This document shows positions 8,678 to 14,170 of a stretch of DNA of 45,245 nucleotides, in pieces. The DNA comes from Escherichia phage vB_Eco_K-01, in the sequence record PQ435593.1. One strand, written 5' to 3'. A program made the position numbers and the translations under genes. The notes beneath the pieces are model-generated. The model saw only the letters and a list, made by a program, of their open reading frames with translations. It did no database searches and was not told the DNA's origin. How positions within the stretch are numbered: the stretch's first letter is position 1; the number at the start of each line of letters is the position of its first letter.

Positions 8678-10957
8678 ATGTCCGATGTAATTTTATCCTA
8701 CTCGTGGTCACGTCGCAACGCGCGGGCAGAGAAAAAGGATATAAACGTCAGAACCACACACACGGCAACACTGGATGACCTGAAAGAGTTAATCCAGCCG
8801 CTCGATGCTGTTCGTGACGGGATCAACCCGAAGACAGCGCCAGGCTATATTACTGCCGCGTGCGACTCTGCGCACAGCACTGTAAAAGACCCGGAAACCG
8901 GTGACTTTAAGCAAGCGCGTAAAGGCTTCTTCTATCGCTGTGACGCGTCTGTGAGCAAATCGTCGCTGGCGTATCTGGACTTCGACAGTGCAACACCGGA
9001 AGAGTACCAGGAAGCGGTGCGCCTGGTTAATCGCAGCCGCCGGGCGATGTGTCTCTACACCACGGCATCACATACCGATGAGTCACCGCGCTTTCGCGTC
9101 GTCATGCCGCTGAGCCGCCCGGTTGAAGGCGGCGACATCATCCGTGTTCGTCATGGCTTGCTGGAGCACTTCTTCGAAGGCATGGGCGCTGACCGCAGCG
9201 GGTTCACTCTGTCGCAGCCGATGTACCTGCCGCCGGTCGGCGCTACCGTTATCTGGTCGCGCCGCAACGACCTGATCGACCCGAACGAGTTACTGGAAGG
9301 CATCCCAGCCGTTGACGTTAGCAGCGCATCGGATTACCAGATACCGGAAGAACTGCGCACCGCGTTTACAGACGCGTTTGAAGCACTGGCGTTTGAGTAC
9401 GGCGGCGTCATGACGCCGCGCGGCCTTAAGATGCCAGCCACACCGGAACATGCCGAAAACTACAGCGACCCGACACCGCGCCCGGACGACTTCCTGCTGT
9501 GCTTCCCGCGCGAGGGGTATGAAGCGCCAAACGTAACCATGATTCACGACACAGACATTACGGCGACAGAAGGCCTGTCACCGAAAGAGGTGTGGAAGTA
9601 CGCGTGCGATGCGACCGGGCTGCCGTTCAGTGAAGTCGCAGAGGCCATCGGTTGGGGGGCGCGTGAATCTGTCTCATGCAGCCTCGACGACCTGGAAGAC
9701 CTTGAAGAAGAGGACGAGTTACCAGAACCGGTAAAGGCTGATTTCGTCGTTGAGGGGTACATGCCGTCGGATTGTATCTGGGATATTGTCGGGGAATCCG
9801 GCACGTACAAATCATTCTATACGCTGGGGATGATGTACCTGAGCGCCGCCGGGTACCGGTTTGCGGGGGCTGACACCCAACGTTGCCACCATTTCTATAT
9901 TGACGGCGAGGGTGGTGCAGCTACACGAACACGTATTGATGCACTCGCGGCTAAATATGGCGAGGAAGGTAAAGATTATGTACATGTCATCGATATGGGC
10001 GAAATACTCGCTACGCATGGTGATAAAAAAATTCCAGCTCTAATCCGCAGGATGCGCGAAACCGCAGGGGATGAACCTATTGGCATGGTTGCCTTCGACA
10101 CCCTTAACCAGACGCTGGCCCTGACGATTGATAAGTTCGACGAGAACAGTTCATCAACGGCAATCGGTATGGGTAAAGTTATCGCCATCCTGAAAGAAGT
10201 GCGCGATGCAACTAAAGCCGCTGTCGGTGTCGTTCACCATACTCCGAAGGGCGGAAAGAAAGCCCGCGGCAGTGGAGCATTGTATGCGGGTGTCGACGTG
10301 GAACTGACAATCGAACGCGCTACCGACCGTCAGATAAACGTATACCACTCTAAATTTAAGCACGGTCCTCAACAGAAGACGGTTGGCATGGTACTGGAGT
10401 CTGTACAGTTCCGTGAAGCACCGCCGCCGAAAGAGTACCGCGCGGTTGAGTTCCTCGGTAGCACAGAGGAATACGGCACAATAGTAAACCTCGACCTGCC
10501 TGAGCCGCACAAGGCGCTTGTATTGATGCCGTGGGGCTTCGAGCCATTCAAGACCGACGAGGAGAAAGAGAGGGAAGAAGGGTTAACTAACGAAGGTAAA
10601 CAAAATGTACGTAAAACCATAGAGAACGCCGTCAACAGTTCCGAGGCCACGATACTCGCGGCGTTTGAACTGGCGGAGGGGACCTACAACGGCAACGAGG
10701 GCATCACGGTATCCGCAGCGAATAAGCTCGCGCAGTCTGACCCCAACGCAAAGGCGTTTAACTCCAAAGAAGCCATAGAACGCGGGAAGATTAAGAAAAT
10801 GGTTGAGGCTGGGTATCTTGTTCCGGGTACTGACGAAAACAATCAGATAATCCCAGGTCGTTACAGGCTGAACACCAGAATAACTGATAACAAGATTCCA
10901 AAGACAATATACGAACCGAATGAAATGTTGACAGTGACAGAGGAGGATTTGGAATGA
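8678..10957 (+). CDS. putative DNA primase/helicase (primase-polymerase-like N-terminus fused to a RecA-like ATPase)
   Basis: 759 aa. N-terminal motifs YLDFDS and TASHTDESPRFRVVMPL resemble an archaeo-eukaryotic-type primase. The central IVGESGTYKSFYTLGMMYLSAAG is a P-loop-like segment, with a Walker-B-like MVAFDT further on. Ends in the acidic tail VTEEDLE. Confidence 0.55.
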   Translation: MSDVILSYSWSRRNARAEKKDINVRTTHTATLDDLKELIQPLDAVRDGINPKTAPGYITAACDSAHSTVKDPETGDFKQARKGFFYRCDASVSKSSLAYLDFDSATPEEYQEAVRLVNRSRRAMCLYTTASHTDESPRFRVVMPLSRPVEGGDIIRVRHGLLEHFFEGMGADRSGFTLSQPMYLPPVGATVIWSRRNDLIDPNELLEGIPAVDVSSASDYQIPEELRTAFTDAFEALAFEYGGVMTPRGLKMPATPEHAENYSDPTPRPDDFLLCFPREGYEAPNVTMIHDTDITATEGLSPKEVWKYACDATGLPFSEVAEAIGWGARESVSCSLDDLEDLEEEDELPEPVKADFVVEGYMPSDCIWDIVGESGTYKSFYTLGMMYLSAAGYRFAGADTQRCHHFYIDGEGGAATRTRIDALAAKYGEEGKDYVHVIDMGEILATHGDKKIPALIRRMRETAGDEPIGMVAFDTLNQTLALTIDKFDENSSSTAIGMGKVIAILKEVRDATKAAVGVVHHTPKGGKKARGSGALYAGVDVELTIERATDRQINVYHSKFKHGPQQKTVGMVLESVQFREAPPPKEYRAVEFLGSTEEYGTIVNLDLPEPHKALVLMPWGFEPFKTDEEKEREEGLTNEGKQNVRKTIENAVNSSEATILAAFELAEGTYNGNEGITVSAANKLAQSDPNAKAFNSKEAIERGKIKKMVEAGYLVPGTDENNQIIPGRYRLNTRITDNKIPKTIYEPNEMLTVTEEDLE

Positions 10958-11151
10958 GCGGTAAATTTAAAGAAGTAAGCGACGAACTGAAAGGTAATAA
11001 ATACACCAACCACAGAGGCGAAGTAGTAGAAGTTCTTAACGTAGTTCCTTATGGGCGCGGGTATCATGTTGTGTTCAGTTACACAGAGGCTTACAGCGTG
11101 TACTGCGGGTTAGGTAAGTTTCGCAAAAGATACCCGATAAAGGTGCAATAA
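10954..11151 (+). CDS. hypothetical protein
   Basis: 65 aa; translationally coupled to the primase (ATGA overlap, GAGGAGGA ribosome-binding site inside the primase 3' end). Confidence 0.45.
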   Translation: MSGKFKEVSDELKGNKYTNHRGEVVEVLNVVPYGRGYHVVFSYTEAYSVYCGLGKFRKRYPIKVQ

Positions 11152-11156
11152 AAAGA

Positions 11157-12588: not shown

Positions 12589-12932
12589 CCGATAAATGGT
12601 GGCTTAATCTGCGTAGTGGCGACAAGGTTTACACAGTCGGCGACCGCAGAAAGAGCAGCGGCGTAGCTACTGTGTTACAAAACGGCAAAAAGTACATTCA
12701 CATTGTGCATGAAGCTCGTGCGCTCCGCGTGAATAAATCGTCTGGCAGGCTTGAGGATTACCCGAAAACATTAATATATAAAAGTGAAAAGCATCACATG
12801 GACGCTGTTGACGCAAGACGTCAGTTCGCAGGAATGTTGCAACAGTTAAGCGACTTACATCGCGATGATTCTTTCATTCCTACAGAAGAACAGTTACAGG
12901 CATTAAACTTGTATTTGGAGAGTTTACGATGA
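12585..12932 (+). CDS. hypothetical protein
   Basis: Track ORF 12570-12932 trimmed to the ATG at 12585; coupled upstream and downstream. Confidence 0.45.
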   Translation: MTDKWWLNLRSGDKVYTVGDRRKSSGVATVLQNGKKYIHIVHEARALRVNKSSGRLEDYPKTLIYKSEKHHMDAVDARRQFAGMLQQLSDLHRDDSFIPTEEQLQALNLYLESLR

Positions 12933-14170
12933 TTCTTAAAGAACGCGGCGGCAATAACGATGTACATGCCTTACTGTCGCCGTCAGGGGCTAAAAAGTGG
13001 CTAAGTTGCGCGGCATCACTGGCCTGTGAAAAAGATATCCCTAACACGTCAGGTAAAGCCGCTGTATTAGGCACGGCAATGCACACCATAGCTGAGGTCC
13101 ATCTCAACGCTTATATTCGCGGAACTGCGCTGCCGTTAGAGCGTGAAGTCGGTGCTTACGTGCTGGATGAAGGCAAAGGCCAGATTAAGGCACTAATCAG
13201 CCCGATGAAAGGCGCGGTACTGATTACGGCGGACATGATTGAGCAGGTGCGCAAGTACACCGACTACTGCAAAGCGATTATAGACGTAGCGACTTACGCC
13301 AAGCTGGAAATGCGTGTTAATCTTACTGAGGTATTGCATCCGGGGTATGAAGGCGTTGAGACGTTCGGAACCGCTGACCTCGTTGCTGTCCAGGAACTGG
13401 CAAACACCGACGAGCACATGCTCATTATCGGCGACCTGAAAACCGGGCGGCATCGCGTCGAAGCGAAAGAAAACAAGCAGCTTATGCTTTACGCTCTCGG
13501 TGTTTATCGTCGACTCAAGAGACGTTATAGCATAACAACCGTTCGTCTGGTCATCTTCCAGCCTTACGCTGGGGGTGCGACAGAGTGGGACATCTCGGTT
13601 GAAGGACTGGAACTGTTCGCTAAGTTCGCACAGAAACGCGCGCTGTTAGCGCTTGATGCTTATTTCCGCGGCAAGAAGGACCTGAAAGCGTCAGACTTTA
13701 AGCCGTCGGTAGATGGTTGCCAGTGGTGCCGGTTCTCTGAACAATGCGCCGCGCGTACAAAAACCGTTAACTCTGTACTGGCTGAAGAACTGGAGGACGA
13801 CTTTGCACTTGAGCTTACGCCAGAGCAACTCGTAGCTGAGTATGAGAAGTTGCCGTTGTTGCGCCAGCACATCGACAAGGTTGAGAAAGCTATGGCTGCT
13901 GCGTTACATTCCGGTAAGAAAGTGCCGGGGTATAAACTGGTTGAAGGACGCCCGGGTAATCGTGCGTGGAAAGATACCGATGCAGTATTCGAGAAGTACG
14001 GTACTATGCTGCAAAAGGTAGTTCTTATGACACCGACCGAAGCGGTTAAAATTGTACCGGAAGAAGAACTGAAAGACTTCATTACCCGTAAGCCCGGTGC
14101 GCCATGCGTCGCAACGGCAGATGACAAACGTCCTGAGTGGAATCAAGTTACAGAGGAGGATTTAGAATGA
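12929..14170 (+). CDS. PD-(D/E)xK nuclease, Cas4/RecB-like (DUF2800-like)
   Basis: 413 aa. N-terminal LLSPSGAKKWLSC, nuclease-core-like GTADLV and IGDLKTG, and a C-terminal Cys cluster (CQWCRFSEQC). Ends in the acidic tail VTEEDLE. Sits beside an SSB-like gene and the DNA polymerase. Confidence 0.6.
   Translation: MILKERGGNNDVHALLSPSGAKKWLSCAASLACEKDIPNTSGKAAVLGTAMHTIAEVHLNAYIRGTALPLEREVGAYVLDEGKGQIKALISPMKGAVLITADMIEQVRKYTDYCKAIIDVATYAKLEMRVNLTEVLHPGYEGVETFGTADLVAVQELANTDEHMLIIGDLKTGRHRVEAKENKQLMLYALGVYRRLKRRYSITTVRLVIFQPYAGGATEWDISVEGLELFAKFAQKRALLALDAYFRGKKDLKASDFKPSVDGCQWCRFSEQCAARTKTVNSVLAEELEDDFALELTPEQLVAEYEKLPLLRQHIDKVEKAMAAALHSGKKVPGYKLVEGRPGNRAWKDTDAVFEKYGTMLQKVVLMTPTEAVKIVPEEELKDFITRKPGAPCVATADDKRPEWNQVTEEDLE

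Follow-up and report, generated by a model that had tools for sequence, protein, structure and literature searches.

The current study concerns a short C-terminal peptide, VTEEDLE, that is carried by two replication proteins of Escherichia phage vB_Eco_K-01 (PQ435593.1): its primase-helicase and a nuclease of the DUF2800 family. The analyzed stretch of DNA, hereafter the window, comprises 45,245 nucleotides (nt); over positions 8678-17657 it matches, at 100% identity, the Kagunavirus (Guernseyvirinae) Escherichia phage vB_EcoS-phiEc3 (MZ576217), and DNA-level matches were obtained to 483 phage records, chiefly of Salmonella and Escherichia siphoviruses. [quoted passage not shown] The replicative primase-helicase (8678..10957, plus strand, 759 aa; Pfam AAA_25 E=3e-20; PHROG 3228 'replicative helicase-primase' E=3e-286) and the nuclease (12929..14170, plus strand, 413 aa; Pfam DUF2800 E=4e-67, PDDEXK_1 E=1.5e-9) are each followed by a small gene, of 65 aa (10954..11151, plus strand; PHROG 36357) and 67 aa (14167..14370, plus strand; PHROG 6314), respectively. 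Further downstream lie an SSB of the T7 gp2.5/Enc34 type (14438..15070, plus strand, 210 aa; Pfam Enc34_ssDNA-bd, PF10991, E=2e-11; PHROG 112 'Gp2.5-like') and the family A polymerase (15405..17657 from its annotated start, plus strand; Pfam DNA_pol_A E=5e-15). The polymerase ends ..AEMKRYAK and has no acidic tail, while the match to its 3'-5' exonuclease domain is weak, at 23.4 bits just below the Pfam cut-off of 23.6.

The primase-helicase terminates in ...EPNEMLTVTEEDLE and the nuclease in ...RPEWNQVTEEDLE, and translation of both open reading frames (ORFs) bears out the original prediction, made by a model from the sequence alone, that each ends in VTEEDLE. The two tails are encoded on the plus strand at 10934..10954 (GTG ACA GAG GAG GAT TTG GAA; stop 10955-10957) and 14147..14167 (GTT ACA GAG GAG GAT TTA GAA; stop 14168-14170). 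The same prediction held that the last 21 nt of both genes are identical, and the pattern ACAGAGGAGGATTTRGAATGA is indeed found exactly twice in the window, at 10937-10957 and 14150-14170, with zero matches at up to 3 mismatches in 100 dinucleotide-preserving shuffles. The repeat extends to 25 nt (10933-10957 and 14146-14170), of which 23 are identical, and both differences are synonymous: GTG/GTT (Val) and TTG/TTA (Leu). At the peptide level, a scan of the 45-kb window in all six frames finds [DE][DEG]DL[DEKS] at no position other than these two C-termini. The tail identity is real and far beyond chance. A weak third copy of the repeat at 33910-33934 (72% identity) was dismissed as a chance match, being opposite a minus-strand gene and not C-terminal.

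A ribosome-binding site and a start/stop overlap had also been placed inside the repeat, and both are there: AGGAGG occupies 10941-10946 and 14154-14159, 7 nt upstream of an ATG (10954 and 14167) that overlaps the TGA stop as ATGA. The two ORFs that begin at these positions are real, since both are annotated coding sequences in the GenBank record and match PHROG families. With a stop/start overlap, a Shine-Dalgarno sequence inside the upstream gene whose 7-nt distance falls within the expected 5-9 nt, and a real gene to follow, both junctions look translationally coupled. None of the ~24 other ATGA-overlap gene junctions in the window reuses the repeat; each has its own purine-rich upstream sequence.

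Among related phages, it is evident that the peptide is conserved independently of this coupling. Conservation in relatives had been proposed as a check on the tail, and the tail is retained in close homologs of both proteins: in nearly all of 120 for the primase-helicase, and as a [TS]EEDLE end in all but few of 120 for the nuclease. In Jersey, the primase ends ..KTTEGDLE (ACA ACA GAA GGG GAT TTA GAG TAA) with a terminator directly after the stop, and the nuclease ends ..NTTEDDLE with an ATGA overlap. In the Dhillonvirus JL1, where the primase lies on the opposite strand, the respective ends are ..SATDDDLKD and ..EATDEDLSNE, neither of them coupled, and in both JL1 and Jersey the codons of the two tail copies differ. 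The tails of SE1 (primase ..TSEEEDLEN, nuclease ..ATDNDLAN) are uncoupled as well. The primases of the Kagunaviruses Bas73 and WAO78-1 end VTE[ED]DLE-TAG, with a terminator behind the stop. In K1G, the nuclease terminates in VSEEDLE (AGT GAA GAA GAT TTG GAA TAA), with an SSB promoter starting 4 nt after the stop; here AGGAGG has been lost by synonymous change and the peptide retained.

The small genes that follow the two tails are unrelated to one another and variable among relatives. The 65-aa gene is absent from Bas73, WAO78-1 and Jersey, in which a terminator (AAAGAAAGGGGC...) directly follows the primase stop; in the window this hairpin (11155..11176) separates the 65-aa gene from the convergent HTH repressor gene. 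Behind the nuclease, the slot holds the 67-aa ORF in the window, a different small ORF in WAO78-1 and an HNH endonuclease in phage Ivi, and it is empty in K1G. The slot after the nuclease stop is a hotspot of gene gain and loss, as is that after the primase stop, where the 65-aa ORF is present or absent. The acidic codons are a ready-made ribosome-binding site exploited by incoming small genes.

These observations also account for the nucleotide identity. Given the peptide, the need for AGGAGG fixes GAG GAG GA and the need for ATGA fixes the last codon as GAA, which leaves 4 synonymous sites free of either constraint, and 2 of these 4 differ between the window copies. Because the ribosome-binding site and ATGA fix most synonymous choices, the 21-nt identity needs no recent duplication or gene conversion. 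The identical coupling cassette of the original prediction is therefore real as sequence identity, but it is not a separate element, rather a by-product of the combined needs of peptide, ribosome-binding site and ATGA. A mobile or duplicated DNA cassette was rejected, given the uncoupled tails and other codons in Jersey, JL1, SE1, Bas73, WAO78-1 and K1G. Since the tail is kept without coupling and with other codons in relatives, the conserved and selected object is, as judged from sequence comparison, the peptide and not a DNA cassette.

Tail sharing is not peculiar to this phage. Eighty viral contigs were gathered with a profile of diverse DUF2800 nucleases, several annotated phages were added, ORFs were called, and the primase, nuclease, SSB, polymerase and SNF2 helicase were assigned by phmmer. 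Throughout this nuclease/gp2.5-type SSB/polymerase module, 2-5 replication proteins per genome end in a lineage-private C-terminal tip. Pseudomonas phage SS2019XI has ..DEDDDL on the primase, ..GEDDL on the nuclease, ..GDDDL on the SSB and ..GEDL on a small acidic protein, gp074. The Chi-like phage Phraden has ..DDEDEV, ..DDDEV and ..WEDEV, along with ..EEDDV on the small acidic protein gp4 and ..VWDDEE on the SNF2 helicase. Enc34 has ..DDEDEV on the primase, ..EEEEV on ORF3, ..DDDEV on the ORF5 nuclease, ..WDEDEV on the ORF6 SSB and ..WDDEED on the ORF9 helicase. Five proteins of Aeromonas phage A18P4 end ..GDI, ..EDI, ..DDI, ..DEI and ..DDI; four of Ruegeria phage V11 end ..D[LI]LG; and four of Phobos end ..LI. 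A prophage-like group pairs a nuclease in ..AADLI with an SSB in ..ASDLV, and its variants change together (..AESLI/..AESLI, ..AAEFI/..AGEFV). Metagenomic relatives carry tail pairs such as AADEDLE/SDSDLE and EDDDLAD/SDDDLSN, and in T7 itself gp2.5 ends ..EDGDF and gp4 ends ..NDTDF. Even the residue that precedes the invariant Thr is shared by primase-helicase and nuclease in three lineages (Kagunavirus V/V, Jersey T/T, JL1 A/A), but it differs in L008 and L012 (A/S) and in SE1 (T-S/A-T).

The set of tip-bearing proteins varies among lineages. In several of them, the shared tip is also borne by a small acidic protein encoded upstream of the nuclease (Enc34 ORF3, Chi-like gp4, Pseudomonas gp074), and a 172-aa acidic protein occupies the same position in the window (11754..12272, plus strand; PHROG 3127), ending ..KNKYFEEE with an internal KDEDLVEYLE. 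The SNF2 helicase is a conserved part of the module that has a shared acidic tip in some other lineages but not in the window phage, where it is a 474-aa protein (19303..20727, plus strand; Pfam SNF2-rel_dom) with a basic end, ..YMKRRGKK. A polymerase with the shared tail was found in none of the lineages examined. Among 150 representatives, the DUF2800 domain ends at a conserved DKRPA, which is followed by 8-25 residues with an acidic-Phe/Leu motif (e.g. DDFEDL) that is often common to the SSB tails of the same genomes.

The tips covary within genomes. In a permutation test, each of 27 nuclease clusters (at 50% identity) was represented by a single genome, and the within-genome identity of the last 3 residues was compared with that after shuffling between genomes. 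The mean number identical was 0.86 observed vs 0.29 under the null for nuclease and primase (p=5e-5), 0.76 vs 0.31 for nuclease and SSB (p=1e-4) and 0.82 vs 0.31 for primase and SSB (p=7e-4), although these lineages are not fully independent phylogenetically and the p-values are indicative only. The controls, any of the proteins against the polymerase, were not significant (p 0.3-0.9). A published account of tail sharing in this module was not found in the literature searched, which is not proof of absence.

The window SSB departs from this pattern. It had been described as ending in an acidic tail, and this description failed: the protein ends ...STDDLEDDEEDEAPRRERRRRG, in which an acidic block (STDDLEDDEEDE, 15002-15036, plus strand) precedes a basic tip, APRRERRRRG, with the arginine-rich PRRERRRRG at the very end, so that the actual terminus is DDLEDDEEDEAPRRERRRRG. 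In other lineages, namely the Enc34, Chi-like, Pseudomonas, Aeromonas and Ruegeria phages, the SSB tip is the same as that of the helicase-primase. Basic SSB ends are a trait of the Guernseyvirinae and Dhillonvirus, where an acidic block is followed by Pro and an Arg/Lys-rich end (window 15037-15070; L001, L002, L012 and L088), exemplified by PRRERRRRG, PRKRRRR, RPRRRRNRDED and RPRKKRRSYEDDEE. The lineages with basic-ended SSBs are the same lineages whose SSB does not share the primase/nuclease tip.

The primase-helicase has a primase region at its N-terminus, then an AAA_25 helicase core of the RecA type (residues 340-526) and a small C-terminal domain (~655-732). A search of PDB sequences with this protein returned no relatives, and its AlphaFold2 model is poor (mean predicted local distance difference test score, pLDDT, 51) because the alignment is shallow; use of this model was confined to its low-confidence profile over the linker and tail. 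The final 27 residues, 733-759, which end in the tag, have pLDDT <30 within this overall poor model. An acidic interdomain linker, SLDDLEDLEEEDE (9680..9714, plus strand; repeat family D7), lies in a low-confidence stretch of the model (residues 327-379, pLDDT <50) and shares 83% DNA identity with the SSB tail's acidic block. Many database homologs of the primase-helicase match it at 95-96% identity over just 54-60% of its length, their divergence falling in the primase region at the N-terminus, a pattern that indicates mosaic exchange of the primase domain among Kagunaviruses, apparently affecting the N-terminal half (8678-9700). A separate 31-nt repeat with 81% identity (10768-10798 and 15321-15351) encodes KEAIERGKIKK in the primase-helicase C-terminal domain and, in the 92-aa protein, AEIIERGKNKK; the gene of the latter protein overlaps the start of the polymerase. 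This pair may be a second shared peptide, or chance.

The nuclease belongs to the RecB-family PD-(D/E)XK enzymes, matching Pfam DUF2800 (PF10926) at 227 bits vs a cut-off of 21 and possessing the catalytic D...D-x-K and Q-x-x-x-Y motifs of this family. C27, C264, C267, C273, D150, D169, K171, Q184 and Y188 are invariant in 51 diverse homologs. Its AlphaFold2 model is confident (pLDDT 92.6), and Foldseek matched it to AdnAB, MGME1, Dna2, Exo5, AddB and Cas4 (Cas4 chains E ~6e-4). The original prediction of a Cas4-like nuclease is apt for the fold, a RecB-type core flanked by four invariant cysteines, but not for family membership: Cas4 is ~200 aa and is found with cas1/cas2 and CRISPR adaptation, whereas the window nuclease has 413 aa with an extra C-terminal domain and sits in a phage replication module without cas genes. 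The DUF2800 nuclease of phage Bas14 (B14T), a member of the same Pfam family with an AdnA/RecB-like PD-(D/E)XK catalytic domain, is an active enzyme that sets off retron type IX by its nuclease activity; plaques form without it, and truncation escapers are viable (bioRxiv 10.64898/2026.07.14.737667). That study addressed immune triggering, not the tail or tail sharing. By sequence kinship, the window nuclease may likewise be a defense trigger and non-essential.

Based upon these features, we consider it probable that VTEEDLE is a shared docking peptide for a common phage-encoded partner, most likely the polymerase, a reading that draws on sequence comparison and on analogy with T7. In this reading, a short C-terminal tag, acidic with one leucine, would be selectively maintained on the primase-helicase and the RecB-family nuclease, and both proteins would bind the same surface of their partner at the replication or recombination fork. 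That partner would most likely be the family A DNA polymerase, with the tails engaging it as the acidic tails of T7 gp4 and gp2.5 engage basic patches of their polymerase. The position of the primase-helicase tag, at the end of a 27-residue segment modeled with low confidence, fits a flexible tether, and the nuclease tag sits ~9 residues past the folded domain. The AGGAGG and ATGA of the coupled downstream gene would then be drawn from the same peptide codons (GAG GAG GAT ... GAA), with the 21-nt identity a secondary outcome.

Two further considerations narrow the choice of receptor. Firstly, it is probably phage-encoded rather than a host protein, given that the tips differ among phiEc3, JL1 and T7, all of them phages of E. 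coli. Secondly, the polymerase is the leading candidate because it is the one large protein that is universal in the module and never tagged, and because it is the receptor in T7. The T7-like docking tail put forward in the original prediction is thus well supported by comparison, in that tails persist when uncoupled and recoded and lineage-private tips recur, but its extension to the SSB of this phage is contradicted by the basic tip.

Several points weigh against this interpretation, in addition to the incomplete independence of the lineages mentioned above. The window SSB lacks the tip of the primase-helicase and nuclease, which it would be expected to keep if the polymerase were a hub exactly as in T7. 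In two metagenomic lineages, L043 (13181-14980) and L041 (4467-6239), the polymerase-slot ORFs are only weak, sub-threshold matches to a family-B polymerase (DNA_pol_B_2), yet tip similarity persists among primase (..LEEF), nuclease (..FEEC) and SSB (..EEEY), such that a family A polymerase is not a necessary hub. The polymerase-slot ORFs of the tip-sharing L051 and L070 gave no polymerase match, which, like the weak matches above, does not establish that these genomes lack a polymerase. The front basic patch of the T7 polymerase, KWKRR, aligns only loosely with KFSR of the window polymerase, in a poorly aligned, insertion-rich region. Finally, the last 13 residues of the nuclease are modeled with pLDDT 86-92 and include a short helix at 409-412, and on this model the tail may not be free but packed against the nuclease's own domain.

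The main alternative receptor is the DNA-binding groove of the SSB. Under this explanation, which we regard as rather unlikely, the tails mimic the acidic tail of the gp2.5-type SSB, or single-stranded DNA, and bind in the groove in place of a polymerase contact, which would recruit primase and nuclease to SSB-coated single-stranded DNA or help to displace the SSB. It gains credence from the fact that in most lineages the SSB bears the same tip as the nuclease and primase, and the window SSB keeps a DDLED block that resembles the primase linker. In the Enc34 SSB crystal, the beta-sheet groove of a neighboring SSB molecule accommodates the acidic C-terminal segment (PMC5686142), and the T7 gp2.5 tail is reported, in the citation given there (reference 14 of PMC5686142), to compete with single-stranded DNA for the same surface. 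The duf2800-gp2.5-polA module has been noted in a survey, with the nuclease and SSB genes adjacent in nearly all modules (PMC8093625). Nevertheless, the last 11 residues of the crystallized Enc34 SSB are disordered (PMC5686142) and include the ..WDEDEV tip. Because these residues are disordered, the shared tip is not what contacts the neighboring molecule; moreover, groove binding would not obviously need exact lineage-specific terminal residues.

Less likely still is that the tails act in cis, each as an autoinhibitory DNA mimic on the DNA-binding surface of its own protein, their likeness then reflecting a common physico-chemical requirement. The ordered nuclease tail of the AlphaFold2 model would suit such a role, as would the general presence of an acidic-plus-Phe/Leu segment after the conserved DKRPA of DUF2800 proteins, and acidic tails that modulate DNA binding by their own protein are known for T7 gp2.5, T4 gp32 and Enc34 ORF6. 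What this explanation does not predict is that unrelated folds (primase-helicase, RecB nuclease, oligonucleotide/oligosaccharide-binding (OB)-fold SSB, SNF2 helicase and small acidic protein) should share covarying tips. The disordered appearance of the primase tail (pLDDT <30) also speaks against it, though that model is poor overall.

It is very improbable that the tails dock on a hub supplied by the host, for instance its beta sliding clamp or SSB-interaction network. Hydrophobic-acidic C-terminal clamp-binding motifs are common to T4 gp43, gp33 and gp55, and the window tails are likewise acidic with a hydrophobic residue, but a conserved host receptor would not predict the different tips of E. 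coli phages: EDLE in phiEc3, DDLKD/DLSNE in JL1 and DF in T7. Furthermore, the tails lack a bacterial clamp motif of the Q-x-x-L-x-F type, and the replication module has no unassigned protein of clamp size. Scarcely credible, finally, is the view that the repeat is an RNA- or DNA-level translational-coupling cassette, duplicated or converted between sites with the shared peptide incidental: the AGGAGG and ATGA at both junctions with their real downstream genes, the 23/25 nt identity, and the GAGGAG to GAAGAA change in the K1G nuclease without a downstream gene (a sign that codon choice responds to coupling) speak for it, but by sequence comparison it appears already largely refuted by the uncoupled and differently encoded tails (the Bas73, WAO78-1 and Jersey primases, the K1G nuclease, JL1 and SE1), the unrelated sequences upstream of the ~24 other ATGA junctions, the variable and mutually unrelated small genes downstream, and tail sharing in phages with plain TAA/TGA stops and intergenic DNA after the tails.

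If the docking interpretation is carried beyond the window phage, the tip could be pictured as a private address tag on up to five replication and recombination proteins, read by a single phage-encoded receptor with which it co-evolves. We put this forward tentatively, and its list of clients (primase, small acidic protein, nuclease, SSB and SNF2 helicase) shares that tentative status. If true, tag-receptor co-evolution would keep the replisomes of related or co-infecting phages insulated from one another, and gaining the tip would be enough to recruit a new client protein. In practical terms, shared tips offer a cheap, sequence-only rule for assigning proteins to one replication/recombination machine, and the rule gives precise peptides for pull-downs and co-folding, e.g. 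NEMLTVTEEDLE. It may also be relevant to the positioning at forks of the DUF2800 nuclease, for which a retron-triggering role has recently been reported.

Other repeated elements were encountered in the window. The SSB gene is preceded by a sigma-70-type promoter, TTGACA-17-TATAGT (14356..14384, plus strand; repeat family D1), that belongs to a set of 30-nt promoter-like repeats at 2988-3017, 7708-7737, 11401-11430, 11445-11474, 14356-14385 and 18116-18145, two copies of which match the sigma-70 consensus at 11/12 positions. Their spacer is conserved and holds a palindrome, AATAGnnnnCTATT, that could be an operator for the Cro/DicA-like HTH repressor encoded at 11165-11380. A GC-rich hairpin, AAAAGGCCCCnnnnGGGGCCTTAG, occurs three times at gene ends (20929-20959, 33469-33499 and 42460-42484), and these copies are probably shared intrinsic terminators. 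At 38014-38167, a perfect tandem duplication of 77 nt, a length not divisible by 3, is situated at the 3' end of an ORF of 330 aa on the minus strand (38034-39026), where it would alter the C-terminus of the protein; a real duplication and an assembly artifact are both possible.

It is textbook knowledge that acidic C-terminal tails dock the parts of the T7 replisome and that shared tail motifs bind the clamp in T4. In the literature searched, no account was found of the same tail logic across a very large, poorly studied group of phages, including Kagunavirus, Jerseyvirus, Dhillonvirus, the Chi-/Enc34-like Casjensviridae and many prophages, with lineage-specific tips that match within genomes, or of its reach to further clients, namely a RecB-family nuclease, a small acidic protein and, in some cases, an SNF2 helicase. 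The parallels to T7 are considerable: the window has a gp2.5-type OB-fold SSB near a family A polymerase, together with a primase-helicase whose acidic C-terminal tail, ..TVTEEDLE, lies in a segment of pLDDT <30 (in a poor model), and in both systems the tips are common to proteins of one genome and the polymerase is untailed. There are also clear distinctions. The second tail-bearer in the window phage is a RecB-family nuclease and not the SSB, whereas the T7 exonuclease gp6 has no such tail, and the window SSB has an added arginine-rich end. The tip is D-L-E, its lone hydrophobic residue being Leu at -2, whereas T7 tips end in Phe, and this C-terminal Phe is essential for T7 tail function. 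The primase-helicase architecture is unlike that of T7, with an AAA_25 core that has no PDB sequence relatives, and no thioredoxin-binding domain is known in the window phage. In T7, the gp4 and gp2.5 acidic tails bind a front basic patch of gp5 and a patch in its thioredoxin-binding domain (PMC12339929; bioRxiv 10.64898/2026.05.20.726333).

Enc34 is similar in gene content, with the same SSB family, a disordered acidic C-terminus and the same module (primase, nuclease, SSB, family A polymerase, VRR-NUC and SNF2 helicase). However, its tail has been treated as a property of the SSB only (PMC5686142), whereas here the Enc34 primase, ORF3, ORF5 and ORF6 are all seen to end ..[DE]EV, and the window SSB differs from that of Enc34 in its basic tip. 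In T4, the sliding clamp is the docking site of C-terminal peptides that gp43, gp33 and gp55 bear on flexible linkers and that are near-identical and interchangeable (PMC2988020). The window phage resembles T4 in that functionally different proteins of one phage bear near-identical C-terminal peptides, but the T4 hub is a sliding clamp, for which no gene is evident in the window phage, and the T4 clients are the polymerase and transcription factors rather than a primase-helicase and a nuclease. The bacterial SSB tip (..DDDIPF) is similar in combining an acidic tip and a hydrophobic residue on a disordered tail with contacts to fork proteins. In bacterial SSB, however, a single tail serves many receptors, whereas in the phages considered here many tailed proteins presumably serve one.

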